Part shown: positions 14,891 through 47,757 of the stretch, in pieces
Numbering within the stretch: the stretch's first letter is position 1
Layout: each line of letters starts with the position of its first letter
NCBI GenBank assembly: GCA_963746845.1
Contig: CAVVCZ010000007.1
Span: 60,488 to 124,487 of the forward strand
Direction: 5' to 3'
DNA length: 64,000 bases
DNA from: an uncultured Chloroflexia bacterium
Lineage (GTDB): Bacteria; Chloroflexota; Limnocylindria; Limnocylindrales; CSP1-4
Notes under the pieces: generated by a model
The model's input: only the letters and a program-made list of their open reading frames with translations
What the model was told of the DNA's origin: nothing
Databases searched by the model: none
Made by a program: the position numbers and the translations under genes

Positions 14891-15798
14891 GACTTCACCT
14901 CGACCGCTTGCTGGCCGTACTGCGCCAGGAACGTCTCCTCGAGGCTCGGCTCGCGGCTGACGAAGTCGGAGAGCTCGTAGGCCGCGGCGGCGCGGACGAC
15001 CGGGGTGATCGAGCCGAAGACCCGCATCCGGAGCGTGTGATCCTCGACGGCCACGTCCGAGACGCCGGGGAGGGATCGGAACGCGTCGACAGGCACGTTC
15101 GCACCATCGACGAAGCGAAGCTCGACCTGGTGGTGGGCCAGGTCACGAAGGGCCTCGGTCCGATCGACCTTGACGAGCACGCCGTCGCGGATGATCGCGA
15201 CCCGATCGCAGGTCCGCTCCACCTCGGAGAGGATATGGCTGGAGAGGAAGACGGTGCGGCCTTCCTCCCGCGCTTCACGAACGAGCGCGTAGAACGACTG
15301 CTGCACCAGCGGATCGAGACCCGACGTCGGCTCGTCGAGGATCAGGAGATCCGGACGATGCTGGAGCGCGACGACCAAGCCGATCTTCTGCTTGTTGCCC
15401 TTCGAGTACTCCTTGAACCGGCGGGTCGGGTCGATGTCGAAGCGCTCGATCAGGCTCTGGCGATAGCCGGGGTCCACGCCGCCCCGCAGGTTGCCGAAGT
15501 ACTCGAGCGTCTGGCCGCCCGTGAGGCGGTCGTAGAGCGTGAACTCGCCCGGGATGTAACCGATCCGGCGGTGGATGGCGACCGGGTCGACCGTCGACTC
15601 GATGCCGAAGACGAGGACCCTGCCGGAGGTCGGCCGGATGAGGTCGAGCAAGGTCCGGATGGTCGTGGTCTTGCCGGCACCGTTCGGCCCGAGAAAGCCG
15701 AAGACCTCGCCCTGCTCGACCGACAGGTCGACGTCGATGACGCCGCGATGCTCACCGTAGGACTTGGTCAGCTTCTCGATCTCGATGATGGCGGTCAT
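14887..15798 (-). CDS. ABC transporter ATP-binding protein
   Basis: Walker A GPNGAGKTTT, ABC signature YSKGNKQKIGL, Walker B LLILDEPTSGLD. Confidence 0.9.
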   Translation of the reverse strand: MTAIIEIEKLTKSYGEHRGVIDVDLSVEQGEVFGFLGPNGAGKTTTIRTLLDLIRPTSGRVLVFGIESTVDPVAIHRRIGYIPGEFTLYDRLTGGQTLEYFGNLRGGVDPGYRQSLIERFDIDPTRRFKEYSKGNKQKIGLVVALQHRPDLLILDEPTSGLDPLVQQSFYALVREAREEGRTVFLSSHILSEVERTCDRVAIIRDGVLVKVDRTEALRDLAHHQVELRFVDGANVPVDAFRSLPGVSDVAVEDHTLRMRVFGSITPVVRAAAAYELSDFVSREPSLEETFLAQYGQQAVEVKS

Positions 15799-15847
15799 GC
15801 CTGTCCTTTCGCCGGTTCCGTGCCGGCATCGCGTTCGTGCCGCGTCG

Positions 15848-16336
15848 TCACGCCGACGCTTCGTTGGTGGGGGCGCCGCGCTCGCCGAGGAACCGGTCGA
15901 TCACGCGGGGCACCTCGACCTCGATGAAGGCCATGACGTCGTGGAACTCCTGCATCCGGGCGCGCGCGCTCGGCGAGTCATCCACCGCCTCGAGCCCGTG
16001 CTCCGCGATGATCCGGAGCTGGCGATAGATGACGCTCGCGCTCGACAGCATCGAGTCGAGCGCCTCCGGCGGCGAGCTGAAGTACTCGCGCCGGTCGCCC
16101 CGGCGGGTCGTCCGGCGGATGAAGCCGGCCGTCGTCAGGATCCGGGCGGCACCGCTCACCGCGCCACGGCTCGCCTGGAGCGCCTCGGCGATGTCCGTGG
16201 CCGACTGCTCCGGTGGGTCGCACAGGAGGAGCCAGCCCCACATCCGGCCGGCCATCGGGGTCATCCCGTAGCCACCGAGGAACTGGCCCATCTCCTCGAT
16301 GAACCGGCTCTGCTCGGGGGTCAGGGTCGTCGCCAT
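15848..16336 (-). CDS. GbsR/MarR-type winged-helix transcriptional regulator
   Basis: 162 aa with the GbsR/MarR-like pattern GMTPMAGRMWGWLLLCDPPEQSATDIAEALQASRGAVSGAARIL. It sits at the head of a minus-strand string of ABC-2, DMT and gal genes. Confidence 0.65.
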   Translation of the reverse strand: MATTLTPEQSRFIEEMGQFLGGYGMTPMAGRMWGWLLLCDPPEQSATDIAEALQASRGAVSGAARILTTAGFIRRTTRRGDRREYFSSPPEALDSMLSSASVIYRQLRIIAEHGLEAVDDSPSARARMQEFHDVMAFIEVEVPRVIDRFLGERGAPTNEASA

Positions 16337-16465
16337 GCGCCGATGCTAGTCCGTTCCGAAGTTTCAGTCAATGCTGAATCGGCGTGACGGTCCGCGGCGG
16401 TCGCAGGCGGGTCGATCGGGTGGGCGTGCGCGGCTACGGGCCGCGCAAGAACGGTCGCGCGGCCG

Positions 16466-17356
16466 TCAGACCCCGATGGGGTGCCAGACGGTCTTCATCT
16501 CCAGCCAGGCCGCGATCCATTCCGGGCGCTCGGCGGCGCGGTCGTCCAGCCAGTCGAAGCGAGCGTCGGTCACGCCGGCCGGCCGGCGCGCGATCCGCTT
16601 GATGTCCTCGGCGGCGAGAAGCTCGGTGTCGCGTCGCAGATCCGGGGGAACGCCCCAGACGTCCAGCGCATCGACGTCCTCGTGGGCCGCGAGGACCGGC
16701 ACCAGCTCCGGCTTCCGCCCCGTGAGGATGTTCACGACCCCACCCGGCACGTCGGACGTCGCGAGCACCTCGGAGAGGGTCACCGCGGGCAATGGCCGCG
16801 TCTCGGACGAGAGCACCACGACCGAGTTGCCCGCGACGAGCGGCGGCGCCAGCCGGGAGACCAGGCCGAGGAGCGACGAGGTCTCGGGCGCGACGATCCC
16901 GACGACGCCGGTCGGCTCGGGGATCGTGAAGTTGAAGTACGGCGCCGCGACCGGGTTCGACGAGCCGAGGACCTGGGCGATCTTGTCGGCCCACCCCGCG
17001 TACCAGACCCAGCGGTCGATCGCCCGATCGACGATCGTCTCGGCCTTCTCGGCGCGCAGCCCCTCGGCCGCCGCGACCTCCGCGACGAACTGCTCGCGCC
17101 GGCCCTCCATCAGCTCGGCCACCCGGTACAGCACCTGGCCGCGGTTCATCGCGGTCTTGTCGGCCCAGGGCTGGAACGCCTTGCGAGCGGCGCGGACGGC
17201 CTCGCGGACGTCCTTGCGCGACGCCCGGACGGCATTCGCGATCGGGTCGCCGGAGGCGGACGACACGACGTACGACCGGCCGCTCTCGGAGCGCGGGAAG
17301 GCGCCCCCGATGTAGAGCTTGTACGTCTTGCGGACGTCGAGGCGGTCCGGCGCCAT
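16466..17356 (-). CDS. truncated aldehyde-dehydrogenase-like protein (N-terminal and NAD-binding region only; no catalytic Cys/Glu region)
   Basis: 296 aa. ALDH N-terminus (YKLYIGG..., DVREAVRAARKAF, W..., IVAPETSSLLGLVSRLAPPLVAGNSVVVLSSE) but no ELGGKSP or catalytic Cys block; divergent C-terminal tail. Start 12 nt after the stop of the full ALDH. Confidence 0.55.
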   Translation of the reverse strand: MAPDRLDVRKTYKLYIGGAFPRSESGRSYVVSSASGDPIANAVRASRKDVREAVRAARKAFQPWADKTAMNRGQVLYRVAELMEGRREQFVAEVAAAEGLRAEKAETIVDRAIDRWVWYAGWADKIAQVLGSSNPVAAPYFNFTIPEPTGVVGIVAPETSSLLGLVSRLAPPLVAGNSVVVLSSETRPLPAVTLSEVLATSDVPGGVVNILTGRKPELVPVLAAHEDVDALDVWGVPPDLRRDTELLAAEDIKRIARRPAGVTDARFDWLDDRAAERPEWIAAWLEMKTVWHPIGV

Positions 17357-17368
17357 CAGCGGGCCACC

Positions 17369-18913
17369 TCAGCGGTCATCGAGCCGGACATAGGCATGCA
17401 GGCCGTGCATCCCGCCCTCGCGGCCGAACCCGGACTCCTTGTAGCCGCCGAACGGCGAGGTCGGATCGAACCGATTGAACGTGTTCGCCCAGACGACGCC
17501 GGCCTTCATCCGCTTGACCATCTGGAGAATCCGGCTGCCCTTGTCGGTCCAGATGCCCGCGGACAGCCCGTACGGCGTGTTGTTCGCCTTCTCTACGGCC
17601 TCCTCGGGTGTCCGGAACGTCAGGACGGACAGCACCGGTCCGAAGATCTCCTCCCGAGCGATCCGGTGGCTCTGGGCCACGTTCGTGAAGAGCGTTGGCC
17701 GGAAGAAGCAGCCGCGATCGGGCAGATCGCAGGCCGGCTGGTACATCTCCGCGCCCTCGGCCCGTCCGGCTGCGACCAGCTCCGTGATCTTCTCGAGCTG
17801 GGCCCGGGAGTTGATCGCGCCGACGTCCGTGTTCTTGTCGAGCGGGTCGCCGACCCGGATCGTCGCCAGGCGGTCCTTCAGCTTCTCGATCAGCGGCTCG
17901 ACGATCGACTCCTGGGCGAGCAGCCGCGACCCGGCACAGCAGACCTCGCCCTGGTTGAAGTAGATCCCGTTGACGATCCCCTCGACCGCCTGGTCGAGCG
18001 GGGCGTCGTCGAACACGATGTTCGCGGCCTTGCCGCCGAGCTCCAGGGTCAGCGCCTTGTCGGTGCCGGCGACCCCCTGGAAGATCTTCCGCCCGATCTC
18101 GGTCGATCCCGTGAAGGCGACCTTGTCGACGCCCGGGTGGGTGATCAGGGCCATCCCGATCTCGCCGGGGCCCGGGACGATGTTGACGACCCCCGGCGGG
18201 AGGTCGGCCTGGCGGCAGACGTCGGCGAAGAGCAGGGCGCTGAGCGGGGTCGTCGACGCCGGCTTCAGGACGACGGTGTTGCCGGCGGCGAGGGCCGGGG
18301 CGATCTTCCACGCGAGCATCAGGAGCGGGAAGTTCCACGGGATCACCTGGGCGGCGACGCCGAGCGGCCGGGCGACCCGTCCGGGGAACGCGTAGTCGAG
18401 CTTGTCCGCCCAGCCGGCGTAGTACCAGAAGTGGGCCGCGGCGAGCGGCACGTCGACGTCGCGCGACTCCTTGATCGGCTTGCCCGAGTCCATCGATTCG
18501 AGGACCGCGAACTCGCGCGACCGCTCCTGCAGGATCCGGGCGATCCGGAAGAGGTACTTCGCCCGCTCCTTGCCGGAGAGGGTCCCCCAGCGCCGGCGCT
18601 GGGCCGTCCGCGCCGCCCGGACGGCCGTGTCGACGTCCTTCGCCGCCGCCTTGGCGACGAGCGCGAGCGGCTCCTCGGTCGCGGGGTTGACGGTCGTGAA
18701 CGTCTCGCCGCCGGTCGCCTGGACCTCGCGGCCGTTGATGAACAGCCCATAGCGGTCCTTGATCGTGACGACGTCGCGCGACTCCGGCGCGGGCGCGTAC
18801 TCCCACGGGATCGCGGCACCGTCGCCGAGCCCCCAGCTCGACGGGTGCCCCCTCGACGCGGGTGACCGCGCCGTTCGTCGCCGCCGGATCGGCCGGGCGT
18901 CTTCGTGGCCATC
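17369..18913 (-). CDS. NAD(P)-dependent aldehyde dehydrogenase with apparent frame disruption(s) in the first ~35 codons
   Basis: Catalytic region intact (ELGGKAANIVF, EVCCAGSRL, EIFGPV, PFGGYKESGFGRE). The frame continues upstream of the track's first Met with clear ALDH N-terminal homology (KDRYGLFINGREV...TFTTVNPATEEPLA...DVDTAVRAARTA...RWGTLSGKERAKYLFRIARIL), but there is no in-frame ATG/GTG/TTG back to the stop at 18923-18925. A continuous N-terminus (MA.MATKTP / ADPAATNGAVTRVEGAPVELG / LGDGAAIPWEY...) is recovered only by removing one base from a CCC run and one from a GGGGG run near 18840-18900. Confidence 0.7.
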   Translation of the reverse strand, partial: DGHEDARPIRRRRTARSPASRGHPSSWGLGDGAAIPWEYAPAPESRDVVTIKDRYGLFINGREVQATGGETFTTVNPATEEPLALVAKAAAKDVDTAVRAARTAQRRRWGTLSGKERAKYLFRIARILQERSREFAVLESMDSGKPIKESRDVDVPLAAAHFWYYAGWADKLDYAFPGRVARPLGVAAQVIPWNFPLLMLAWKIAPALAAGNTVVLKPASTTPLSALLFADVCRQADLPPGVVNIVPGPGEIGMALITHPGVDKVAFTGSTEIGRKIFQGVAGTDKALTLELGGKAANIVFDDAPLDQAVEGIVNGIYFNQGEVCCAGSRLLAQESIVEPLIEKLKDRLATIRVGDPLDKNTDVGAINSRAQLEKITELVAAGRAEGAEMYQPACDLPDRGCFFRPTLFTNVAQSHRIAREEIFGPVLSVLTFRTPEEAVEKANNTPYGLSAGIWTDKGSRILQMVKRMKAGVVWANTFNRFDPTSPFGGYKESGFGREGGMHGLHAYVRLDDR

Positions 18914-18922
18914 GCGGCCATG

Positions 18923-20201
18923 CTACGCGAAGAGCGACTGACCGAGGTACCGGGCGGGATCGGGCACGCCAGGCAGGGTGTAGAAAAAGCCACCGCCGAC
19001 GGGGCGGATGTACTCCTCCAGCGGTTCGCCGGCGAGCCGCGCCTGGACGGCCAGGAACCCCGCCGCCAGATCGCGCTGGTAGCAGACGAAGACGAGGCCC
19101 TGGTCGAGGAGCCCGGCTGCGTCGAAGCCCCGGCTGTACGAGTAGCCGCGGCGGAGGATCCGGTTGCGTTCCGTCGCCGGCGTCCGCGGATTCGCGAGCC
19201 GGATGTGGGCGTCGAGCGGGACGACCTTGCCGTCCGGATCGCGTCGCGTAGTCCGGGATCGACTCCTCGCGCGGGCTGCCGAGAACCGCACCGGTGCGCT
19301 TCGTCCGCCCGATGATCCCTTCCTGCTCGCCGAGCGCGGTCCGGTCCCAGCGCTCGACGAACATCCGGATCGGCCGGACGACGAGGTAGCTGCCGCCCAC
19401 GGCCCAGTCCGGCTCGCCGTCCCGAGGCCCGACCCACACCAGCTCGTCGGCCACGGCGTCGTCTCCGACGGGCGGATTGGCCGTCCCGTCCTTGAACCCC
19501 AGCAGGTTGCGCGTCGTCGTGTGGCCCGGGGTCGCGGCCGGGTCCGGGCGCAGGAACCCGTCGATCAGCCAGCGCAGCCGGAGCGCGTCACGGACGCCCA
19601 TCTGGAGGTAGCGCAGGGCGTGGATGCACGCCTCCTGGTCGACCGCGCAGATCTGGATCAGCAGGTCGCCGTGGCTCAGGGCGGGGTCGATGACGTCCTT
19701 CGGGAAGACCGGCATCGGGGCGAGCTGCCGGGGCTTCCGATCGCCGAGACCGAACCGACCGTCGAACAGCGACGCCCCGACGGACACCGTCACGGTCAGG
19801 TCGGCCGGGCCTGTCGTCGCGCCGAGAATGCCGCTCTCCGGCGGCGGATAGAGCGGATCGCCGCCCTCCGGCGACCAGCCTGCGGCGAGGGTCCGGATCC
19901 GCGTCGTGAGGTCGGTCATCGCCCCGGCGAGGGTCGGACGATCCGGCGCCACGACGTCGAATGCGGCGAAGAGCGAGGCGGCCTGCGGCACGGCCGGGCG
20001 GACGATCCCGGCCTGGTGTGCGCCCTCGAAGGCCACGTGCGAGGCCTCGGCGGGGCGTGCCGCCGCGCCGCCCTGGGACGGGTCGACGGTGCCCGAGACG
20101 AGCACGCCGCCGACGCCACCGGCGACGGCCGCCGCGCCTGCTCCCGCCGCCGCAACGAGGAACCGGCGCCGGCTGAGCGCGGGCGTGGTGATCTCGGTCA
20201 T
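18923..20201 (-). pseudogene. efeB: Dyp-type peroxidase EfeB (Tat-dependent), interrupted by one frameshift near 19240-19250
   Basis: N-terminal twin-arginine signal (SRRRFLVAAAGAGAAAV), GFKDGTANP DyP motif, C-terminal HIRLANPR...RRGYSY...GLLFVCYQ...[10 protein letters not shown]. The N-terminal ~320 codons lie in one frame (inside a 1099-aa artefactual ORF) and the last 122 codons in another. The junction ...IPDYATR|[13 protein letters not shown] needs a 1-nt correction in a CGCG run. Confidence 0.75.
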
Positions 20202-20212
20202 GGCCGGGGCGA

Positions 20213-21376
20213 TCAGGCGAACAGGCCGAGCTTGCCGGGGAGCTCGGCGAGGACCTCGGACAGCTTCGCCATCCGGGCCTGGAGCGCGCCCAGGTCGGCC
20301 TTCGTGATCGCCGAGAACGGCTGGTAGCCCGACCCGTCCGCGTAGCGGCCGATGATCTCGTCGACCGCGCCATACGCCGCGTCGACGCCCGAGAGGTACG
20401 TCGGATCGACGGTCTGGATCGTCGGCCGCATGATGTCGACGATCTTCTTCGAGCCGGCCACGTTCCCGGCGATCGACCACAGGTCGGCCCCGGAGTAGCG
20501 GTCCTCCTCCCCGGTCAGCTTCGACTGGGCGACCTCCTCGATCAGCTCGCCGGCGCCGCGGGCCATGACCCGGGGCTCGATGTCCAGGGTCGCGAGCCGC
20601 TTGCCCAGCTCGGTCGCGTCGGCGCCGAGGCCCGCGGCGATCGGTGCGAGCCCGTTCGTCGTGCCGTCCTTCCACAGCCCCTTCTCCAGGCGGTGCCAGC
20701 CGAGGAACGCCGGATCGTCGACGCCGCCCGCGAAGTCCTCCTCGCGGGCGTCCATCCGCGTGTCGAGGTCCGAGAACAGCTCCGCGACCGGCTCGATCCG
20801 CTCCCAGGCCGGGCGCGACGGCGCGTAGGCGGCCTTCGCCGCATCGAGCTTGCCGTCCTCCACGGCGGTGACGAACGGCGCGAGGTTCTGCGTCAGCTCG
20901 GCGGCCTGCTCGCGGACGTACGTCTCGTATGCGGTCCGATAGCCCGCCAGGGTCGCAGCGTCGATGACCGCGCTGGACGGCCGGGGGGCCGAGCCGCCGG
21001 TCACGGCCAGCTGGCCGCGCGGTGCCTGGAGCGAGTAGCAGATCAGGGCGTAGGTGCCACCGTCGAGGCGGGTCGCGAAGTTGATCACGAACCCGGGGAC
21101 GATGTTCTCGACCTCGTCGACGACACGGGTGCCGGACAGGACCTCGAATTCGGCCGCATCCGGGCCGCCGTTCGTCACCTCGAACACGACCCGGCCCGCC
21201 GTGGCGTTGAGGCTGCCGGGCGTACAGCCGCTCGCCGTCAGCGTCACGGGGATCCGCGCCTCGGCATCACCGGCCGCCGTGCCGGATCCCGCCGGTGACG
21301 CGCTGCACGCGCCGACGACGACGGCGACCAGGGCCGAGGCGGCGAGGCGCGTGGAGCGGCGAGAACGGGTCGTCAT
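20213..21376 (-). CDS. efeO: iron uptake system component EfeO (cupredoxin-like N-domain plus imelysin/M75-like domain), lipoprotein
   Basis: 387 aa. N-terminal signal with lipobox-like VVGAC. Overall match to the EfeO pattern, and immediately upstream of efeB in the same orientation. Confidence 0.75.
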   Translation of the reverse strand: MTTRSRRSTRLAASALVAVVVGACSASPAGSGTAAGDAEARIPVTLTASGCTPGSLNATAGRVVFEVTNGGPDAAEFEVLSGTRVVDEVENIVPGFVINFATRLDGGTYALICYSLQAPRGQLAVTGGSAPRPSSAVIDAATLAGYRTAYETYVREQAAELTQNLAPFVTAVEDGKLDAAKAAYAPSRPAWERIEPVAELFSDLDTRMDAREEDFAGGVDDPAFLGWHRLEKGLWKDGTTNGLAPIAAGLGADATELGKRLATLDIEPRVMARGAGELIEEVAQSKLTGEEDRYSGADLWSIAGNVAGSKKIVDIMRPTIQTVDPTYLSGVDAAYGAVDEIIGRYADGSGYQPFSAITKADLGALQARMAKLSEVLAELPGKLGLFA

Positions 21377-21548
21377 GTCGGCGAGCGTGCCTCCGTGGTT
21401 GGTCGCGATCGGGCGGCACTCCGCGCCGCGCCGCGTCGCTCCGGCGGGCGGAATGGTAAGCCAACCTGCCTCAGCAGGGCAAGGGCACTTGCGTTACGAT
21501 ACCAAGTATGCTTGCTGACCAGCCACCAGCCGGCCCGGGACTCCGGGC

Positions 21549-22385
21549 GTGATCCCGGCCTTCCTGATCACCCTCCGCGAGGGGCTCGAGGCGGCCCTGA
21601 TCGTCGGGATCGTCGCCGCGTATGTCGTCCGCGTCGGCCGGCGCGACGCGCTGCCGAAGGTCTGGTTCGGCGTGGCAGCGGCCGTCGGCCTGTCGATCGG
21701 GATCGGGCTCGTCGTCGTCGCCACGATCGAACGCCTGCCGCTCGTCGTCCAGGAGTCGATCGAGGGCGCGACCGCACTGCTCGCCGTCGCGATCCTGACC
21801 TGGATGCTCTTCTGGATGCGCCGCCAGGGCCGAGCGATGAAGGGCGAGCTCGAGCACGGCGTCGATCTGGCCCTCGCGAAGGGCTCGGTCGCGGCGCTCG
21901 TCGGCCTCGCGTTCGTGGCCGTCTTCCGCGAGGGCATCGAGACGGTCCTGTTCATGGCCGTGGTCTTCTCGGCGACGCAGGTGGGTCCCGGCCCAGCGTT
22001 CGGGGCCATCGCCGGTCTCGCGGTCGCGGTGCTGATCGGCTGGGCGATCTTCGTCGCCGGCGTCCGGATCGACCTGCGCCGCTTCTTCTCGATCACCGGG
22101 GTGCTCCTGATCTTCGTGGCGGCGGGCCTGTGCGCCTTCGCCGTCGGCGAATTCGGCGAGGCGGGGCTGATCTCGAACACCGGCGCCGTCTTCGACCTGA
22201 GCGGGGTCCTGCCGGTGACCAGCGCGCTCGGGAGCGTGCTCGCGGGGCTCTTCGGCTATCGAGCGTCCCCCACCCCGCTCGAGCTGATCGCGTACTTCGC
22301 CTACCTGATCCCGGTCCTGACGCTGTTCCTCCTCGGGGATCGCCGGTCGGCACCGCGGGCGAAGCCGGTCGACGCCGGGGCCTGA
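21549..22385 (+). CDS. efeU: FTR1-family high-affinity iron permease (EfeU)
   Basis: 278 aa, 7 TM, two REGLE/REGIE motifs (LREGLEAALIVG and FREGIETVLFMA) diagnostic of FTR1/EfeU. Divergent from efeO. Confidence 0.8.
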   Translation: MIPAFLITLREGLEAALIVGIVAAYVVRVGRRDALPKVWFGVAAAVGLSIGIGLVVVATIERLPLVVQESIEGATALLAVAILTWMLFWMRRQGRAMKGELEHGVDLALAKGSVAALVGLAFVAVFREGIETVLFMAVVFSATQVGPGPAFGAIAGLAVAVLIGWAIFVAGVRIDLRRFFSITGVLLIFVAAGLCAFAVGEFGEAGLISNTGAVFDLSGVLPVTSALGSVLAGLFGYRASPTPLELIAYFAYLIPVLTLFLLGDRRSAPRAKPVDAGA

Positions 22386-22395
22386 TCCGGCTCCG

Positions 22396-23331
22396 TCAAC
22401 CGCGCGTCGAGAGGTCGGCGAGGGTCGGCGGGTCGGCGCCCGCCCGGCCGACCGTCCAGGACGCGACGCGCACCGCGAACCGGACGGCGTCGAGGACGGC
22501 GTCCGCGTCATGGAGGTCCTCCCGTCCCCGTCCCGAGTGCGTCCAGGCCGCCAGGAACCCGGCCGCGAACGCGTCGCCCGCGCCGACGGTGTCGACGAGC
22601 GGGACCCGCGGGACCGGGATCTCGACCGTGCCCGCGGGGCGGACGATCCGGATCGGCGCCGGGCCGTCCGTCAGCAGGACGATCGCCGGCCCCGCTGCGA
22701 CGAGCCCGCGCGCGGCGGCGATCGCGTCGGCGCCGGGGGCGAGCCAGCGGAGGTCGTCGACGCTGACCTTGACGACGTCGGCACGGCGCACGACCGCCTT
22801 CAGCCGCGCCCGGTAGACCGTCTCGTCGAGGATCGCCGCCGGGCGGATGTTCGGGTCGAGCATCACCAGGACGGCCGAGTCGGCCGCCGCGACCAGATCG
22901 GCGATCGTCGTCGCCGTCGGCTCCAGCACGAGGCCGAGCGTGCCCACGTGGAACACCGCCGCGGTCGGCGGCAGCCCGTCCGGAAGGTCGTCAGAGCGGA
23001 GCCCCGCCGCCGCGGAGCCCGGCGGCTCGAACCGGTAGGTCGCCGCGCCATGGGCGTCGAGCGAGGCGATCGCCTGGAGGGTCGGCTCGTCCGTGTCCCG
23101 GGTCAGCGACAGGTCGACGCCGTCGTCTTCGAGGAGTCCGCGGAGAACACGCCCGTCGGGGTCGGTCGAGAGGCGGCCGAGGAACGCCACCCGGCAGCCG
23201 AGCCGGCCCAGGGCACGCGCGGTCGTGAACGGTCCGCCGCCGGGCACGGCATCGACCCGCCCGTCGGTCCGCGCGATCCGGTCGATCAGGCTCTCCCCGG
23301 CGACGACGATCAGGGGTCGGTCATCGGACAT
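22396..23331 (-). CDS. PfkB-family carbohydrate kinase (fructokinase/ribokinase-like)
   Basis: 311-aa protein starting MSDDRPLIVVAGESLIDRI, with C-terminal PfkB signature DTVGAGDAFAAGFLA. ATG at 23329-23331 inside a longer artefactual ORF. Confidence 0.8.
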   Translation of the reverse strand: MSDDRPLIVVAGESLIDRIARTDGRVDAVPGGGPFTTARALGRLGCRVAFLGRLSTDPDGRVLRGLLEDDGVDLSLTRDTDEPTLQAIASLDAHGAATYRFEPPGSAAAGLRSDDLPDGLPPTAAVFHVGTLGLVLEPTATTIADLVAAADSAVLVMLDPNIRPAAILDETVYRARLKAVVRRADVVKVSVDDLRWLAPGADAIAAARGLVAAGPAIVLLTDGPAPIRIVRPAGTVEIPVPRVPLVDTVGAGDAFAAGFLAAWTHSGRGREDLHDADAVLDAVRFAVRVASWTVGRAGADPPTLADLSTRG

Positions 23332-23385
23332 CGCCGAAGCGTAGGGCGGCCGCCGAGCCGGCGTCCGTGCCGGTAGGCTGCCGCG

Positions 23386-24090
23386 ATGGACCGGCTGACG
23401 AGCGTTGCGGAGCTGCTGGACGGGCCACTCGACGACGAGCGCGCGCTGGTCGGCAACCTGCGCGACCTCGCCCGGCTCAACCGGCTGACCGGTGGAGCCC
23501 GCCTGTCTCAGCGGGCCATCGCGTCGTTGGCGCCAGACCGAGGAGCGCCGATCGCGACGCTGCTGGACGTCGGCACGGGCGCCGCCGACATCCCGATGAC
23601 GCTGCTGGCCGCCGCCCGGCGCGCGGGCACGACCCTCACGATCACCGCGACCGACAGCCGGCCCGAGGTGATCGCCGCGGCGCGCACCGCCCGCCCGGCG
23701 ATCGACCGGGTCGACGGGCTGGAGCTCGCGATCGCCGACGGACGCGGCCTGCCCTGGCCGGATGCCGCGTTCGACGTCGCGCACGCGTCGATGGTGCTGC
23801 ACCACCTCGAGCCGGACGACGCGGTCGCCTTCCTCCGGGAGCTGCGGCGGGTGGCCCGGATCGGGATCGTCGCGAACGACCTGGCCCGCGGGCGGCTCAA
23901 CTGGGTCGGGGCATGGGTGCTGATCCACGCCACTGCGACGAGCCGGTTCACCCGCCACGATGGCCCCCTGTCGGTACGGCGCGCGTACACGCGCCGGGAG
24001 CTGGACGAGCTCATCGCGGCGGCGGGTCTGACGCCCATGCGCACGGTCGTGGGCTTCGCCGGGCATCGGGTCGCGATCGCCGCTCGGTGA
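23386..24090 (+). CDS. class I SAM-dependent methyltransferase
   Basis: Motif I LDVGTGAADIP and a post-I acidic residue pattern. 234 aa. Confidence 0.75.
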   Translation: MDRLTSVAELLDGPLDDERALVGNLRDLARLNRLTGGARLSQRAIASLAPDRGAPIATLLDVGTGAADIPMTLLAAARRAGTTLTITATDSRPEVIAAARTARPAIDRVDGLELAIADGRGLPWPDAAFDVAHASMVLHHLEPDDAVAFLRELRRVARIGIVANDLARGRLNWVGAWVLIHATATSRFTRHDGPLSVRRAYTRRELDELIAAAGLTPMRTVVGFAGHRVAIAAR

Positions 24091-24123
24091 GCCGGCCGCG
24101 TTCCAGCGACTACGCTCCGCGCG

Positions 24124-25314
24124 ATGGAGCGACGCGAGGTCCTGATCGTCGGCGGGGGTCCGGCCGGCGCCGCAACGGCGATCGGGCTGGCGCGGCGCGG
24201 CCGCGACGTGCTCCTCGTCGAGCGCGCTCCCGTGTGGCGCTGGCGGGCGTGCGGCGTGTTCACGTCGCCTGCGACGGTTCGTGCGCTGCGGCGTATCGGC
24301 GTCGCGGACGAGGACCTGGCGCGGGTCGCGCGGCGGGTGCCAGCGATGCGCGTCGAGACGCCGGCGGGGACGATGTTCCGCCTGACCTACGGAGACGACG
24401 GCTCACTCGGCTCGGCGGCGGTCGGGCTCGATCGGTCGACGCTGGATCCGTGGCTCCTCGGCCTTGCCCGGGCGGCGGGTGCCGAGGTCCGCGAGGGCGT
24501 GTCTGTCCGTTCCGTCCGGGAGGGCGGGGCGGTGGCGGCGGACGGAGCGGAGATCGAGGCCCGGGTCGTCGTCGGGGCGGACGGGCTGCGATCCGTCGTC
24601 GCGCGGGACGCGGGCGTCGTTCGAAGGCCGCCACTCGGCGATCGTCCGGCGCTCACCTTCCACGTCGAGGATCCCGGGCCGGACGTCGCACGGGACGCAC
24701 GAATGGTCGTCTTCGACGGCGGCTACGTCGGTCTGGCACCCGTTCCTGGTGGCCGGGTGAACGTCGGGATCGTCCTCGCGACCCGGAGCTGGCGCGATCG
24801 ACTGCGGGCGGAGGGCGCCGCCGCCGTCGCGGCCGCGGTCCTGGCGGCGATCCCGCCGGCCGACGACGACCCGGTCCCGTGGGCGGCGCCGCGGATCCGC
24901 GATGGGTTCGAGGGCGCGTCGCCGGTCGGGACACGCGTCGTGACCCGGGCCGGGGCTCGGTGGCTCCTCGTCGGGGACGCGGCGGGCTTCCTCGATCCGT
25001 TCACGGGCGAGGGCCTCCACCGGGCCCTGCGATCGGCGGAGCTCGCGACGGCCGCCACGGACCGATTCCTGACCGGTGACCCGGCCGCGCTCGGCGCGTA
25101 CGACCGGGCGCTCGCCCGTCGCACGCGATCGAAGGATGCTGTCAGCCTGATCGTCCAGGCGTTCCTCGAGGTCCCCGCGCTCTTCGACTACGCGGCCCGC
25201 CGGCTCGCGGCGCGGTCGACGGTCCGTGAGACGATGGGCCTCGTGATGGGCGACCTCGTCCCGGCGTCGACGGCCTTCGACCCGCGCTTCCTCGTCGGGC
25301 TCCTCCGCCCGTGA
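24124..25314 (+). CDS. FAD-dependent oxidoreductase, geranylgeranyl-reductase family
   Basis: N-terminal dinucleotide fold VLIVGGGPAGAATAIGLARRGRDVLLVER, GDAAGF motif (LLVGDAAGFLDPFTGEG) typical of the geranylgeranyl-reductase/MenJ-like family. 396 aa. Confidence 0.75.
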   Translation: MERREVLIVGGGPAGAATAIGLARRGRDVLLVERAPVWRWRACGVFTSPATVRALRRIGVADEDLARVARRVPAMRVETPAGTMFRLTYGDDGSLGSAAVGLDRSTLDPWLLGLARAAGAEVREGVSVRSVREGGAVAADGAEIEARVVVGADGLRSVVARDAGVVRRPPLGDRPALTFHVEDPGPDVARDARMVVFDGGYVGLAPVPGGRVNVGIVLATRSWRDRLRAEGAAAVAAAVLAAIPPADDDPVPWAAPRIRDGFEGASPVGTRVVTRAGARWLLVGDAAGFLDPFTGEGLHRALRSAELATAATDRFLTGDPAALGAYDRALARRTRSKDAVSLIVQAFLEVPALFDYAARRLAARSTVRETMGLVMGDLVPASTAFDPRFLVGLLRP

Positions 25315-25799
25315 CCGAGCCCGGTCATGTGCCGCCGGACGAGGCGAAGCTCCCGCGGCGGACACGCCTGGGCGGCTACGCGCTCTGCACGGACGAGCAG
25401 GACCGGATCCTGCTCGCCCGCCTGTCCGCGATCGAGGTCGACGTGGGCGCGTGGACCCTGCCCGGCGGCGGCGTCGACTTCGGCGAGCACCCGGACCACG
25501 CGGTGATCCGCGAGCTCGAGGAGGAGACCGGCCTGATCGGGGAGATCGACGGCGTCGCGGGCGTGTTCTCGCACGTCTACCGCCAGTCGCGCGCCGTCGC
25601 GGGCGCCGATCTCCACTTCCTCGGGATCCTGTACGTCGTCCGGGTCGTGGGCGGGCAGCTCCGCGACGAGGTCGACGGGACGACCGACGCCGCCCGCTGG
25701 TTCCGCCGGGACGAGCTGGCCGCGGTTCGCCTCGTCGAGATCGCGCGGTTCGGGGTGGATCTGGCGTTCGAGCGCCTGGCGGACCGGGCCGGGGCATGA
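25311..25799 (+). CDS. NUDIX hydrolase
   Basis: Nudix box GGGVDFGEHPDHAVIRELEEETGL. Start overlaps the stop of the upstream gene. Confidence 0.8.
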   Translation: MTEPGHVPPDEAKLPRRTRLGGYALCTDEQDRILLARLSAIEVDVGAWTLPGGGVDFGEHPDHAVIRELEEETGLIGEIDGVAGVFSHVYRQSRAVAGADLHFLGILYVVRVVGGQLRDEVDGTTDAARWFRRDELAAVRLVEIARFGVDLAFERLADRAGA

Positions 25800-26305
25800 G
25801 GAGCACGATCGGGATCGATGTCGCGGCTCCCGCCGAGCTGGTCTTCCGGCTGGCGCACGACGTGGAGCGCTGGCCGCGGCTCCTCCCCCACTACGTCGCC
25901 GCCACCCGCCTCGCGCCCGAGGACGTCGCAGGTCGGCTCGACGTGCGGTTCGTGGCCCGGCGGGCGTTCGTCCCGGTCCTCGGGCTCGGCATCCCGGTCG
26001 CCTGGCGTTCGCTGACCTGGTCCGAGCCGGAGGCCTGCCGGCTGCGGTTCGTCCATCGCGGCGGGGCGACGAACGGGATGGACGTGACCTGGCGGATCGA
26101 GACCCGCGAGGGCGGCGCCAGCCGGGTCGAGATCGACCACGACTTCCGGCCGCGGGTGCCGGGCTGGGCGTGGGCGATCGACCGGTTCTTCACGCGGCCG
26201 ATCGCCGGCCGAACGCTCGCGACCTTCCGGGCGCTGGCCGAGGCGATGGCCGAAACCACGACCGGGACGTCCGAACGGCCCGCCACGACGAACCCATCCT
26301 CGTGA
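25796..26305 (+). CDS. SRPBCC-superfamily protein (polyketide cyclase/dehydrase-like fold)
   Basis: 169 aa MRSTIGIDVAAPAELVFRLAHDVERWPRLLPHYV..., matching the Bet v1-like/cyclase-dehydrase family pattern. ATG overlaps the NUDIX stop (ATGA). Confidence 0.6.
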   Translation: MRSTIGIDVAAPAELVFRLAHDVERWPRLLPHYVAATRLAPEDVAGRLDVRFVARRAFVPVLGLGIPVAWRSLTWSEPEACRLRFVHRGGATNGMDVTWRIETREGGASRVEIDHDFRPRVPGWAWAIDRFFTRPIAGRTLATFRALAEAMAETTTGTSERPATTNPSS

Positions 26306-27567
26306 GCGATCGTCGACGCGTCTGGATCACCGGGATCGGGCTGATCACCGCGATCGGGACCGGCGTCGACGCCTTCCGGGCAGGCCTGCGCGCCGGCTGC
26401 TCGCCGATCAAGCGGATCGACCGGTTCGATCCGTCGCCGTTCCGGAGCCAGGTCGCCGCCCAGATCGACGACTTCGACCCGGCCGCCTGGATGCCCCCGA
26501 AGACCGCCCGCCAGCTCGACCGGTTCAGCCAGTTCGGGCTGGTGGCCGGTCAGCTCGCGCTCGAGGACGCCGGGCTGCGGCCGGGCGAAGGCGGTGCGGC
26601 CGCCCGCGAGCGGATCGGCATCTTCCTCGGCAGCGCGCTCGGCGGGATCGCCTACGCCGAGGGCCAGCACGAGCGCTATCTCGAGCGCGGGATCAAGGCC
26701 GTCGCACCGAACCTCGCGCTCGCGGTCTTCGGTGGTGCGGCGCCCGCCAATCTCGGCATCGCGCTCGACGTCCGCGGGCCGATCCTGTCGACCGCGAACT
26801 CGTGCGCGTCGGGGGCCGTCGCGCTCGGCGAGGCGCTGAACGCGATCCGGGACGGCGAGGTCGACGCCGCGGTCGCGGGCGGGGCGGAAGTGCCGCTGAG
26901 CGCGCTCGCGTTCGGGGCGTTCGACATCATCCGGGCCCTGTCCGACGGCCGGAACGACGACCCGGCCCGGGCCTGCCGCCCGTTCGACGCCGGCCGCGAC
27001 GGCTTCGTCATGGGCGAGGGCGTCGCGCTGCTCGTGCTCGAGGCGGAGGAGATCGCTCGGGCGCGGGGCGCGGAGCCGTACGCCGAGCTCCTCGGCTACG
27101 GCGCGACGTCGGACGCGTTCCACATGGTCCAGCCGCGGGCGGACGGATCGGAGGCCGGCCGCGCGGCGACGATCGCGCTGCGGGACGCAGGCGTCGCGCC
27201 GGACGAGATCGACTGGGTGAGCGCCCACGCGTCGTCGACGCCGCTCGGCGACATCGCGGAGGCGCGGGCGATCCGGCTCGCCCTCGGGGAGCGGGCCGCG
27301 ACCGTTCCCGTCAGTGGCACGAAAGCGCTCTACGGCCACCCGCTCGGTGCGTCCGGGGCAATCGAGGCCGCGATCTGCGCCCTCGCGATCCGGGACGGCT
27401 GGGTCCCTGCGTCGGCGAACCTGACGGCGCCCGAGCCCGAGATCGACGCCCTGCTGCCGGGTCTGCTCCACGCCGGTCGCGACGGCACGTATCGGCGGAT
27501 CCTGTCGACCTCGTTCGGGTTCGGCGGCCTCAACGGGGCTGTGGTGATCGGCGCAACCGGCGGATAA
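26302..27567 (+). CDS. beta-ketoacyl-ACP synthase (KAS II/FabF-like)
   Basis: GTG start overlapping the upstream stop. Ketosynthase motifs, with the active-site Cys in STANSCASGAVALGEA and the two His regions (SAHASSTPLGD, GHPLGASGA). About 421 aa. Confidence 0.85.
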   Translation: MSDRRRVWITGIGLITAIGTGVDAFRAGLRAGCSPIKRIDRFDPSPFRSQVAAQIDDFDPAAWMPPKTARQLDRFSQFGLVAGQLALEDAGLRPGEGGAAARERIGIFLGSALGGIAYAEGQHERYLERGIKAVAPNLALAVFGGAAPANLGIALDVRGPILSTANSCASGAVALGEALNAIRDGEVDAAVAGGAEVPLSALAFGAFDIIRALSDGRNDDPARACRPFDAGRDGFVMGEGVALLVLEAEEIARARGAEPYAELLGYGATSDAFHMVQPRADGSEAGRAATIALRDAGVAPDEIDWVSAHASSTPLGDIAEARAIRLALGERAATVPVSGTKALYGHPLGASGAIEAAICALAIRDGWVPASANLTAPEPEIDALLPGLLHAGRDGTYRRILSTSFGFGGLNGAVVIGATGG

Positions 27568-27615
27568 GCGGTTCGGCGTAGAGTCGGGTCGAACGACAGC
27601 ACCGGAGAACCCGCC

Positions 27616-28344
27616 ATGGCCGTTGCCTCACCCAGCTTCGCCGGCTTCCGACCGGAGGCCATCCAGTTCCTCGCGGACCTCGCCGAGAACAACGACCGGG
27701 CGTGGTTCCAGCCGCGCAAGGCGGAGTTCGAGCGGCTCCTCAAGACGCCGATGGAGGAGCTCTGCGTCGCCCTCGAGGCGGAGTTCCGCGCCCGCGATCT
27801 GCCGCTCCACGCAGACCCGGCCCGGTCTCCGTTCCGGATCTACCGCGACACGCGCTTCTCCAAGGACAAGTCGCCGTACAAGACTCACGTCTCCGCGAGC
27901 TTCGGCTGGGCCGGCGACGGCGTCGGGGCGGCCGAAGGGCGGTCGCACACGGACAACGTCCATGCGAGCGGCGGGTACTTCCACCTCCAGCCCGGCGAGA
28001 TCTACGTCGGCGGCGGGGTCTGGCACCCGGATTCGGCCTGGCTGGCCGGCTTCCGCCGGCGTGTGGCGGGCGATCTCGATGGCTTCAGGGCGATCGCCGA
28101 GGCGCCGGCGTTCACCAAGGCATTCGGGCGGGTCAGCGACGACGGCGAGTCGCTGAAGCGCGTCCCGCCCGGCTATCCCGCCGATCACCCGGCGGCGGAC
28201 ATCCTCCGCCTCAAGAACGTGACCTTCGGTCGACGGCTGTCGGACGACGAGGCGCTCTCCCCGAAGCTCCCGACCGTGATCGTCGACACGTTCGCCCTCG
28301 GGACGCCGCTCATGCGCTACCTCGCGACGATCGGCGCCGGCTGA
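27616..28344 (+). CDS. DUF2461/TIGR02453-family protein
   Basis: 242 aa beginning MAVASPSFAGFRPEAIQFLADLAENNDRAWFQPRKAEFE, matching the conserved DUF2461 N-terminus. Confidence 0.65.
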   Translation: MAVASPSFAGFRPEAIQFLADLAENNDRAWFQPRKAEFERLLKTPMEELCVALEAEFRARDLPLHADPARSPFRIYRDTRFSKDKSPYKTHVSASFGWAGDGVGAAEGRSHTDNVHASGGYFHLQPGEIYVGGGVWHPDSAWLAGFRRRVAGDLDGFRAIAEAPAFTKAFGRVSDDGESLKRVPPGYPADHPAADILRLKNVTFGRRLSDDEALSPKLPTVIVDTFALGTPLMRYLATIGAG

Positions 28345-30873: not shown

Positions 30874-31872
30874 TCAGTCGATCGTGAAGTGGTCCGGGCC
30901 CTGGTAGCGGCCGGTCCGCTCCTTCTCGATCTGCATGAGGACGTCGTTGAGCAGCGATGACGCCCCGAACCGGAACCAGTCCGGGCTCATCCAGCGCGGC
31001 CCGAGGGTCTCGTACAGGACGACGAGGTACTGGATCGCCTCCTTGGCGACACGGATCCCGCCCGCGGGCTTCATCCCGACCTGGCGGCCCGTCTGGCGCT
31101 CGAAGTCCCGGATCGCCTCGAGCATCACCAGCGTCACGGGGAGCGTCGCGGCGGGTACGACCTTGCCGGTCGAGGTCTTGATGAAGTCGGCGCCGGCGGC
31201 CATCGCCAGCACGGAGGCCCGGCGGACGTTGTCATAGGTCTCGAGCTCGCCCGTCTCGAGGATCACCTTCAGGTGGGCCTCGCCGCAGGCGTCCTTGACG
31301 TCGACGATCTCCTCGAACACGGTCAGGTAGTCGCCCCGGAGGAACGCCCCGCGGTCGATGACCATGTCGATCTCGTCGGCGCCCGCCTCGGAGGCCGCCC
31401 GGGTCTCGGCGATCTTGATGTCGCGGAAGGTCTGGCCGGACGGAAAGCCCGTCGCGACCGAGGCGACCTTGACGGTCGAGCCCTTCAGGGCGTCCTTCGC
31501 GTCCTCGATCATCGTCGGGTAGACGCAGATCGCCGCGACCGAGGGGATCGTCGGGTCACCCGGCTGGGGGTGGATGCCCTTTGCGCAGAGCGCGCGAACC
31601 TTGCCCGGGGTGTCCTTCCCCTCGAGGGTCGTCAGGTCGATCATCCGGATCGCGAGGTCCAGCGCCCACAGCTTCGAGGCCTTCTTGATCGAGCGCTTCT
31701 TTAGGCTGTCGACCCGCTCCTCGACGCCGACCTGGTCGACGCTGCTGACCCGTCCGAGGAGGCTGCCGAGCGCGCCCGGCCGGCCGTCCCACGAGCGGAC
31801 GAGCTCATGGGCGCGTTCGCGGGCGAGCGTGTCCGGGCGATGGACCGTGGCCATGGGACGGTGAGGATACAC
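30874..31872 (-). CDS. deoC: deoxyribose-phosphate aldolase (long form)
   Basis: DeoC motifs SVATGFPSG and FIKTSTGK (Schiff-base Lys region), with an N-terminal extension. 332 aa. Confidence 0.75.
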   Translation of the reverse strand: MYPHRPMATVHRPDTLARERAHELVRSWDGRPGALGSLLGRVSSVDQVGVEERVDSLKKRSIKKASKLWALDLAIRMIDLTTLEGKDTPGKVRALCAKGIHPQPGDPTIPSVAAICVYPTMIEDAKDALKGSTVKVASVATGFPSGQTFRDIKIAETRAASEAGADEIDMVIDRGAFLRGDYLTVFEEIVDVKDACGEAHLKVILETGELETYDNVRRASVLAMAAGADFIKTSTGKVVPAATLPVTLVMLEAIRDFERQTGRQVGMKPAGGIRVAKEAIQYLVVLYETLGPRWMSPDWFRFGASSLLNDVLMQIEKERTGRYQGPDHFTID

Positions 31873-40899: not shown

Positions 40900-40930
40900 T
40901 GGCCCAGCGCCGGACCGCGAGCCCGCGCCC

Positions 40931-46652: not shown

Positions 46653-46761
46653 CTTCGATCCTCCTGTCACGACGCCGGCCCCCGGCATCCCGCGACGCCC
46701 GGGGCGGCGTCATCATTCCGGGAACCTACCCACTACATCGGGACGTGAGACGCTGCCGCAG

Positions 46762-47729
46762 ATGACGACCGTCGGTCAGGGCTTCGAGCAACGGCGATTG
46801 ACCAAGCGTTCCGTCGTGACCGGGGACCTCGTGTTCCGCGTGTTCACCGCCGCGCTGACATTCGCGGTTGTGCTCTTGATCAGCTTGATGGTCTACAAGA
46901 GCGTCGTGACCACCGTCCCGGTCTTCGACAAGTTCGGCGTTGTCGGCTTCGTCACCGGGACGCGATGGTCCCCGTCATTCGGAATCTACGGGGCCTTGCC
47001 GTTCATCTACGGGACGGTCCTGACCAGCGCAATGGCGCTCCTGATCGCAGTTCCGATCGCGCTTGGGATTGCGCTCCTCGTCACGGAGATGCTACCGCGA
47101 CGGATCGCCGGGCCCGTGGCCGTCGCCGTTGACCTGCTGGCCGCCATCCCGTCGGTCGTCTGGGGCCTGTGGGGGCTGCTCGTGCTCGTCCCGTTCCTGA
47201 GACCAATCGAGACGGCGATCGCCGGAAGCATCGGCCAGCTCATCCCGTTCCTTGGACCGCCCACGCCGGGACCCAGCTACTTCGCCGCCGGCGTCATCGT
47301 CGCGTTCATGATCATCCCGATCGTCGCCGCCGTCACCCGGGAGGTCTTCGCGGCCACCCCGCGGCTCCAGCGGGAGGCAGCCCTCGCCCTGGGCGGGACT
47401 CGCTGGGACGTCATCCGCCACGTCGTCGTCCCGATCGGGCGAACCGGCATCCAGGCGGCGGTGATCCTCGGGCTCGGACGGGCGATCGGCGAGACCATCG
47501 CGGTCACGCTCGTGATCGGGAACTCAACGAAGATCGGACCTCGATCTTTTCGCCAGGATTCTCGCTGGCCTCGGTCATCGCCAACGAGTTCAACGAAGCG
47601 ACCGAGCCGCTCCATCCGGAGTCGCTCATCACGCTGGGGGTCGTTCTGCTCGCGATCGCGGTGATCGTGAACGGTGCAGGTGTCGCCGTGCGTAGGCGCT
47701 TCGAGCAAGGTTCTGGCCGTGCTGGCTGA
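46762..47729 (+). pseudogene. pstC: phosphate ABC transporter permease PstC with a frameshift near 47530
   Basis: PstC TM core in one frame up to ...TLVIGNSTKIGP. The conserved C-terminus (IFSPGFSLASVIANEFNEATEPLHPESLITLGVVLL...) continues in another frame to the stop at 47727-47729. Confidence 0.7.
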
Positions 47730-47757
47730 TCCGACGCTCGTGTTCCGGCCGACGGGC

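Follow-up and report, generated by a model that had tools for sequence, protein, structure and literature searches.

The iron-uptake genes efeU, efeO and efeB and, directly behind efeB, a gene for an aldehyde dehydrogenase (ALDH) and a second, short ALDH-like gene lie together in a 64,000-nucleotide stretch of DNA from an uncultured Chloroflexia bacterium of the Limnocylindrales (contig CAVVCZ010000007.1, positions 60,488 to 124,487 of the forward strand). This whole stretch is referred to as the window, and positions are counted from its first letter. The arrangement is quite probably best explained as two unrelated modules standing side by side, an ordinary efeUOB locus and a gene pair that, by sequence comparison, appears to be a conserved two-gene, split version of ALDH16. 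The first-pass annotation of the window had presented the ALDH pair as an extension of EfeUOB, an idea that is not supported, because the pair is an autonomous module, has deoC as its usual partner, and stands without efeUOB in the closest relatives. The same annotation had also allowed for a fortuitous adjacency, and it is this alternative, in the form of a lineage-specific one, that the restricted distribution of the arrangement favours.

The two genes of the ALDH16 pair

The first gene of the pair (17369-18912, minus strand) encodes an ALDH16-type catalytic ALDH of 513 residues (aa) after correction of two +1 frameshifts in codons 7-24, and ends in a stop codon at 17369-17371. The protein matches the Pfam Aldedh profile at 5e-161, its best PDB match is 6MVR over residues 12-476, with 566 bits vs 418 for the next PDB family, and none of the NCBIfam equivalog cutoffs of other ALDH types is reached by it. 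It had been called a full aldehyde dehydrogenase with its catalytic Cys, and this is borne out by the codons for Asn (18334-18332), Glu (18043-18041) and Cys (17941-17939), all of which were located (motifs PWNFP, LELGGK and VCCAG). The ratio of nonsynonymous to synonymous substitution rates (dN/dS) of the full ALDH gene is 0.07-0.15.

The second gene (16466-17356, minus strand) starts 12 nucleotides (nt) after the ALDH stop, with its own ATG behind a GAGGTG Shine-Dalgarno sequence, and encodes 296 aa; both its coordinates and the gap had been given correctly before. The protein is a stand-alone homologue of the ALDH16 C-terminal domain. It matches Pfam Aldedh only at profile positions 5-214 of 461, ends about 60 residues past the Rossmann fold, and has no equivalents of Cys302 and Glu268, while alignments place Thr159 at Asn169, Leu182 at Lys192 and VWGVP at FTGST. 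Thus the earlier description of a protein that stops before the catalytic domain is right in that this domain is absent, but the protein is not a mere truncation, since it keeps a conserved C-terminal strand, E.KT.WHP, which is the counterpart of the ALDH16 beta-flap. In short, it consists of a degenerate Rossmann fold and a beta-flap, without a catalytic domain. Its best PDB match is again ALDH16, at residues 499-765 of 6MVR/6MVU (E=4e-57 vs 5.6e-32 for the next), and its AlphaFold model, with a mean predicted local distance difference test (pLDDT) score of 88.9, has the ALDH16 entries 6MVU, 6MVR and 6MVS as its top three Foldseek matches, with a template modelling (TM) score of 0.85 across all 296 residues.

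Such proteins form a large family. The 120 best database relatives are all 295-310 aa long at 86-100% identity, and an exhaustive search at E<=1e-30 gave at least 634 clusters (50% identity) in two phyla, most members being 275-300 aa long and covering the query end to end. Purifying selection, which the first-pass annotation had proposed to look for, is evident in the conserved gene, as dN/dS against five orthologues is 0.08-0.22, comparable to the values for the full ALDH gene and for EfeO (0.11-0.27). The same annotation had left the choice between a tandem-duplication remnant and a non-catalytic partner. That the short gene is a decaying, functionless relic of a tandem ALDH duplication could be argued from its resemblance to the neighbouring ALDH, whose N-terminal half it matches at ~31-33% identity, and from the loss of the whole catalytic domain, and likewise of the Asn169 and Lys192 equivalents. 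Nevertheless, a gene with such a dN/dS, with its length kept across the 634 clusters in two phyla, with 44 invariant positions (RSESGR, SRKD.R, AG..DK and E.KT.W among them) in members as low as 40% identical, with a confident AlphaFold model, and with the same domain retained, fused, in ALDH16, has practically no chance of being a relic; the selection and conservation data refute that reading. Favoured instead is the non-catalytic partner, and the short protein is presumed to be a partner subunit of this kind.

The structure 6MVR is that of ALDH16 from Loktanella (PMC12041015, PMC8160307), and ALDH16 is regarded as the least understood of the ALDH families, the role of its extra domain having been rationalised only structurally (PMC8160307, PMC12041015). 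This C-terminal addition is similar to an NAD-binding domain, does not bind a nucleotide and serves oligomerisation, and the Loktanella dimer mimics the classical ALDH tetramer (PMC12041015, PMC8160307). Activity of the Loktanella enzyme has been reported on medium-chain aldehydes, e.g. hexanal (PMC12041015), and the human member, ALDH16A1, is a pseudoenzyme with a link to gout (PMC8160307, PMC12041015). Because both genes of the window best match 6MVR, in order, and because natural ALDH-short fusions of 814-833 aa were found in the short-family search, the pair reads as a split ALDH16. One protein of this kind, P0384 (833 aa), is encoded at high G+C and has a long proline-rich linker and a degenerate catalytic Cys motif, and on its sequence it may be a bacterial ALDH16 pseudoenzyme.

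Compared with ALDH16 as known (cd07111-type; Loktanella 6MVR/6MVS/6MVT/6MVU; human ALDH16A1), the two window genes match in the right order, the ALDH has the Asn/Glu/Cys catalytic triad, as the bacterial enzyme does, and the extra domain has a Rossmann-like fold whose nucleotide-binding residues are degenerate, in line with descriptions of ALDH16 (PMC12041015). ALDH16 is, however, defined as a single polypeptide of ~770-800 aa, whereas the window has two genes, a split form that prevails in Limnocylindria and in many Actinomycetota. The pair is a variant of ALDH16 rather than a canonical member, because its two parts are not fused into one polypeptide, being separated by the stop at 17369-17371, a spacer of 12 nt and a second ATG that has a Shine-Dalgarno sequence to itself. 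A further parallel is the C-terminal ALDH-superfamily-fold domain of type B/C PutA, likewise an extra domain of Rossmann-like fold that is non-catalytic, free of NAD and takes the place of a second ALDH protomer in the oligomer (PMC12041015); that domain is, however, fused to the pyrroline-5-carboxylate dehydrogenase of a proline catabolic enzyme, and PutA is not among the top PDB matches of the short protein. In the searchable literature, no description was found of a split or heteromeric ALDH16, or of deoC-linked ALDHs in Actinobacteria, and the two-gene form thus has not been described before as far as this literature shows.

Gene neighbourhoods of the pair and the efe adjacency

A genome scan with one genome per species, covering Limnocylindria and other Chloroflexota together with many Actinomycetota (Streptomyces, Amycolatopsis, Kribbella, Nocardioides, Modestobacter and others), gave 80 loci, 72 of them with enough flank for a neighbour call. 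In 71 of these 72 loci the short gene is immediately preceded, on its own strand, by a full ALDH gene (70-93% identical), and the pair is an autonomous, universally linked two-gene module. For the count of neighbours, the flanking open reading frames (ORFs) were clustered and then annotated with Pfam. In Actinomycetota the gene immediately before the pair is typically deoC, which holds this place in 56 loci, on the same strand and with a median gap of 18 nt, and other recurring neighbours are a PGM/PMM-type mutase (19 loci), adenosine deaminase (13) and purine nucleoside phosphorylase (12). The usual partner of the pair is therefore deoC, not efe. In Actinomycetota the arrangement resembles deo clusters, with the pair directly after deoC and near genes for purine nucleoside phosphorylase, adenosine deaminase and a phosphopentomutase-like PGM/PMM protein. 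It differs from the classical deoCABD operon of E. coli, which has no aldehyde dehydrogenase, and the window differs from deo gene clusters in that its own gene of the deoxyribose-phosphate aldolase family (deoC, 30874-31872, minus strand; Pfam DeoC 7.4e-21) is 12 kb away, upstream of the pair.

DeoC releases acetaldehyde. Because of this and of the conserved deoC context, oxidation of the acetaldehyde from DeoC in deoxyribose and deoxynucleoside catabolism would be the most likely role of the pair. The short gene, with its 12-nt gap and GAGGTG sequence, would be translationally coupled to the ALDH gene, and by analogy to Loktanella ALDH16 the short subunit would pack on the catalytic subunit like the second protomer of a classical ALDH dimer, so that a heterodimer would form and two heterodimers might assemble into a pseudo-tetramer (alpha2beta2) with two active sites. 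It is possible, though rather doubtful when all its parts are taken together, that the pair is an obligate heteromeric ALDH of this kind, in which a catalytic subunit and a dedicated pseudo-subunit form the unfused counterpart of ALDH16 and serve deoC-linked removal of acetaldehyde in deoxyribose catabolism.

The link to efeUOB has a much narrower reach. In the scan centred on the pair, efeUOB adjoins it only in the window, in L003, in L004 (the same contig as L009) and in L027, and is absent beside the pair in all other Limnocylindria loci of the genome scan. When EfeO was taken as the centre, the arrangement was found at 83%, 77% and 75% EfeO identity (L003, L004 and L086), with no pair at the efe loci of 74%, 71% and 60% identity (L087-L089). 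No ALDH16 pair follows efeB in 36 more distant metagenome efe loci, which were scanned with the corrected EfeB and hold relatives of at most 62% identity. An unrelated single ALDH, about 40% identical to that of the window, is found 2-2.6 kb downstream of efeB in four loci from compost and other metagenomes (L092, L093, L094 and L097); it is not an ALDH16 pair and does not adjoin efeB. The synteny comparison that the first-pass annotation had called for thus gives a divided answer: the adjacency recurs in the three related Limnocylindrales genomes L003, L004 and L086, but L001, L002, L087-L089 and the 36 metagenome loci are without it.

The closest relative by every shared protein is L001, where the ALDH is 96%, the short protein 92% and the MarR-family protein 93% identical, and where the pair stands without efeUOB. 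The same is seen in L002, which is similar to L001 (ALDH 94%). A PfkB gene directly precedes the ALDH gene in both, with an 8-nt gap in L001. The slot between a methyltransferase gene and the ALDH gene is variable, holding PfkB, an M74 peptidase, an unknown 296-aa gene and efeUOB in differing combinations, and efeUOB in the window occupies this variable slot, between PfkB and ALDH. Beside the slot lies a conserved block (23386-28344 in the window, and present in all four related metagenome-assembled genomes (MAGs), L001-L004), with methyltransferase, flavin adenine dinucleotide (FAD) monooxygenase, NUDIX, SRPBCC/polyketide-cyclase-like, ketoacyl synthase and DUF2461 proteins. Because of the restricted distribution and the variable content of the slot, the efe adjacency is attributed to one lineage-specific event in one Limnocylindrales subclade, some descendants of which lost it without effect on the pair; it is an accident of gene order in that lineage, without functional meaning.

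Transcription signals at the ALDH start agree with this in part. In 11 Limnocylindria relatives an element stands at the ALDH start, TGn(C/G/A)ATAAT-N7-ATG in nine and TATGAT in two, with a spacing of 7-8 nt to ATG or GTG, and it is kept whatever gene lies upstream; in L001 the TAA stop of the upstream gene lies inside GATAAT. An extended -10 element next to an ATG is a signature of leaderless mRNA promoters, and leaderless genes occur in high-G+C Gram-positive lineages. The conserved element is, on its sequence, probably an extended -10, leaderless-type promoter of the ALDH pair. In the window, its counterpart is the -10-like TAGCAT at 18920-18925 (minus strand), which contains the efeB stop TAG and lies 7 nt upstream of the ALDH ATG at 18912. 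The identical hexamer, 6 nt from an ATG and there accompanied by a TTGACT -35, stands in front of the MarR-family gene of the window. From the efeB stop it is 1 nt to an in-register ATG and 10 nt to the conserved ALDH start. A terminator scan gave 3 sites vs 1.5 expected, and one candidate at 19007-18993, a weak 5-bp stem inside conserved efeB coding sequence, was rejected. A separate promoter or terminator between efeB and ALDH had been named, along with a lack of conservation of the adjacency, as what would refute the extension of the locus; a promoter-like element is present in the relatives and degraded in the window, and a terminator was not found.

Several observations weigh against the two-module account and the role proposed for the pair. 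No terminator and no intergenic space separate efeB from ALDH in the window, and the TAGCAT there lacks the TG extension and a -35, in place of the TGn(C/G/A)ATAAT of the relatives. With the ALDH promoter weakened in this way, read-through from efeOB may contribute to expression, and co-transcription of ALDH with efeOB may occur in the window. The efe adjacency has survived a synonymous divergence (dS) of ~0.5-0.7 in four genomes, and an independent second case, efeUOB-deoC-ALDH-short, was found in a Pseudonocardiaceae MAG (L027, 480-7885), where efeU, efeO, efeB, a 216-aa gene, deoC, ALDH and the short gene are all co-directional. Moreover, the acetaldehyde role comes from gene context, and the Loktanella enzyme was assayed with hexanal-type substrates (PMC12041015); the window deoC does not adjoin the pair; and the case for a heteromer is indirect, drawn from fusion proteins, invariable adjacency and the structure of ALDH16.

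From the missing spacer and terminator, the weak -10 element, the adjacency that L003, L004 and L086 retain (gap 26 nt) at a dS of ~0.5-0.7, and the one co-directional cluster in L027, it might be argued that the pair is a functional accessory of EfeUOB, co-transcribed from the efeO promoter and removing aldehydes derived from the DyP-type peroxidase, or otherwise linked to iron. Outside the clade of the window itself, however, just 2 of the 80 genome loci have efe near the pair, L009, one of these two, being the L004 contig, and L027, as one chance co-occurrence among ~60 actinobacterial loci, is not significant. In the closest relatives L001 and L002, which have no efe beside the pair, purifying selection on it is just as strong, the efe loci at 60-74% EfeO identity and the 36 more distant ones are without the pair, and a conserved promoter-like element lies between efeB and ALDH in L003, L004 and L086. 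In addition, EfeB and ALDH act in different compartments, because EfeB is periplasmic, with a twin-arginine translocation (Tat) signal, while ALDH has no signal peptide. An accessory function is accordingly regarded as very improbable, and the lineage-specific adjacency of two independent modules is retained.

Frame breaks in efeB and the ALDH gene

As assembled, both genes at the junction are broken. The N-terminal 319 codons of efeB (from the ATG at 20201) and its C-terminal 105 codons stand in different frames, and alignment with L003 and L004 places one extra base near 19241, in GACTACGCGACG-C-GATCCGGAC. With one base deleted, a 424-aa EfeB is obtained that covers positions 7-419 of the 420 of the TIGR01412 profile and scores 449.7 bits (cutoff 428). 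Behind the efeB stop the ALDH frame is open, yet upstream of 18493 it offers no start codon, be it ATG, GTG or TTG; the ALDH start of the relatives, MATKTP..., corresponds to the ATG at 18912-18910, which is in a different frame from the main ALDH frame. By comparison with the 513-aa orthologue of L001, the N-terminus is spread over three frames, MATKTP / ADPAATNGAVTRVEGAP / SSWGLGDGAAIPWEYAPAPES, the third-frame stretch in the window reading SSWGLGDG...WEYAPAPES, and the frames are separated by two extra C's, at ~18895 and ~18843. The efeB stop and the ALDH frame had been described as contiguous, and the stop at 18923-18925 and the open frame are indeed so placed, but the true start at 18912 lies in another frame.

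Frame switches were mapped by a codon-usage Viterbi segmentation, which also found at least eight switches without stops in the pstCAB operon at 46.7-49.5 kb. The three single-base insertions (~19241, ~18895 and ~18843) fall within ~420 bp, and they are probably errors of a noisy long-read MAG assembly. They are read in this way because they are single extra bases, because the corrected frames are free of stops and the corrected proteins match their families at full length, and because the pstCAB breaks are alike and the related contigs, which are from MFD MAGs, have Flye-style names and fragmented genes, such as the FAD-monooxygenase gene of L003, split into four calls. No GATC or homopolymer context is enriched at the frameshift sites, GATC being present in 51% of all 50-nt windows.

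That three indels fall within 420 bp may also mean real inactivating mutations, which counts against this reading. In that case efeB and the catalytic ALDH16 gene would be recently inactivated pseudogenes, with both modules decaying, and the clustering of the insertions, as well as the spacer and promoter upstream of ALDH, which are altered too relative to L003 and L004, would fit. In the corrected frames, however, neither secondary stops nor other decay are seen, EfeB once corrected exceeds its equivalog cutoff in an end-to-end match, the ALDH is still 96% identical to that of L001, the essential-looking pstCAB in the same window has the same clustered frame breaks, and sister contigs of the same project have genes fragmented likewise. 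Real inactivation is thus considered unlikely, and the frame breaks are taken as errors of assembly.

Two further regions of the window show similar breaks. The pstC/pstA/pstB-like phosphate ABC transporter operon (46745-49456, plus strand) has at least eight frame segments without stops at the junctions and a protein sequence that is continuous across frames, and looks like clustered single-base assembly errors. A polyphosphate-kinase-like ORF (38794-40851, plus strand) is followed directly, in another frame and without a stop at the junction, by a CYTH/CHAD-like ORF (40856-42847); the cause is a frameshift, or else the two are a fused or overlapping pair of genes. At the efeB-ALDH junction, the frame of the N-terminal part of efeB is open for 1,099 codons through the ALDH gene (17376-20675, minus strand), because of the high G+C content, which is ~72% in this region. 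Clustered single-base frameshifts of this kind would mislead gene callers, and a spurious giant ORF is possible at 17376-20675.

The efeUOB locus, its flanks and the meaning of the pair

The iron-uptake locus itself is an ordinary one. The gene efeU (21549-22385, plus strand) encodes an FTR1-family iron permease (Pfam FTR1 3.9e-52; NCBIfam EfeU equivalog NF041756 293 bits, cutoff 255) with two REXXE motifs, REGLE at residue 10 and REGIE at residue 127, so that of the two REGLE motifs reported at first only one is literal, though the count of two motifs stands. The gene efeO (20213-21376, minus strand) encodes a cupredoxin (PF13473) and an M75/imelysin (PF09375) domain, and reaches 354 bits against the EfeO equivalog NF041757 (cutoff 270). 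The gene efeB (18923-20201, minus strand; stop TAG at 18923-18925) encodes a Tat-exported DyP-type peroxidase with the Tat motif SRRRFLV and both DyP domains. Its earlier assignment as a Tat-signal DyP peroxidase therefore holds for motif and domains, but not as a single open frame, since the gene is split over two frames by the +1 shift, one extra base, at ~19241. Gene coordinates, strands and family matches agree with the divergent orientation of efeU and efeO-efeB that had been noted.

Like EfeUOB of E. coli and B. subtilis (YcdNOB/YwbLMN), the window proteins have the two REXXE motifs in EfeU, the cupredoxin and M75 domains in EfeO and a Tat-dependent DyP peroxidase in EfeB, and all three reach NCBIfam equivalog cutoffs, EfeB after frameshift correction. 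Unlike there, efeU is divergent from efeO-efeB and not the first gene of a single efeUOB operon, efeB is frameshifted as assembled, and a Fur/IdeR box is not recognisable. A search for an iron-responsive motif of the IdeR/DtxR or Fur type between efeU and efeO had been proposed; a consensus scan of 21377-21548 gave best scores of 11/19 for IdeR and 10/19 for Fur, both within the background of random windows, a weak negative since regulators of Chloroflexota may differ from the consensus. No inverted repeat was found in this divergent intergenic region. It does hold a putative efeO promoter (21453-21482, minus strand), with TTGCCC at 21482-21477, an 18-nt spacer and TACCAT at 21458-21453, a role suggested by the sequence and by its alignment with a conserved TTGAC[CT]-N17/18-TAGCAT at the same position in L003 and L004. 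GCAAG-type direct repeats ~23 nt apart flank or overlap the putative -35 (window 21465-21515; L003 7870-7925; L004 7870-7925), and, being conserved in three genomes, may be a candidate binding site of a regulator that is not Fur- or IdeR-like.

On the far side of efeU lies a gene for a PfkB-family sugar kinase (22396-23331, minus strand), with NCBIfam and Pfam matches. Downstream of the pair, a gene for a MarR-family regulator (15848-16336, minus strand; Pfam MarR), with ABC transporter genes next to it, has its own predicted promoter, TTGACT-17-TAGCAT-6-ATG at 16371-16343 (minus strand; 1 site vs 0.2 expected in the promoter scan), so that gene and promoter together span 15848-16371. The gene marks the downstream end of the ALDH transcription unit, and its synteny downstream of the pair is kept in L001-L004. 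The promoter, only 6 nt from the ATG, points by its sequence to a leaderless transcript, and would be an internal example of this promoter architecture in the organism. An Rfam gathering scan of 15000-24000 found nothing.

For iron biology these results are of modest interest, for ALDH enzymology of moderate interest. If the pair does form a heteromeric ALDH with a pseudo-subunit, the ALDH superfamily would gain a quaternary form that has not been described for it, and the pair would make clear how the architecture of ALDH16 originated, by fusion or fission of a tandem gene pair. A separate, strongly conserved extra domain in the deoC operon of cultivable Streptomyces, Amycolatopsis, Kribbella and others offers a tractable test system, and the split system could reveal what the extra domain does for the catalytic subunit, be it stability, activity or regulation, as well as the substrate of the family. 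Should the proposed role be true, the near-universal linkage to deoC in Actinomycetota would give the 'enigmatic' ALDH16 its first physiological assignment, the removal of acetaldehyde.

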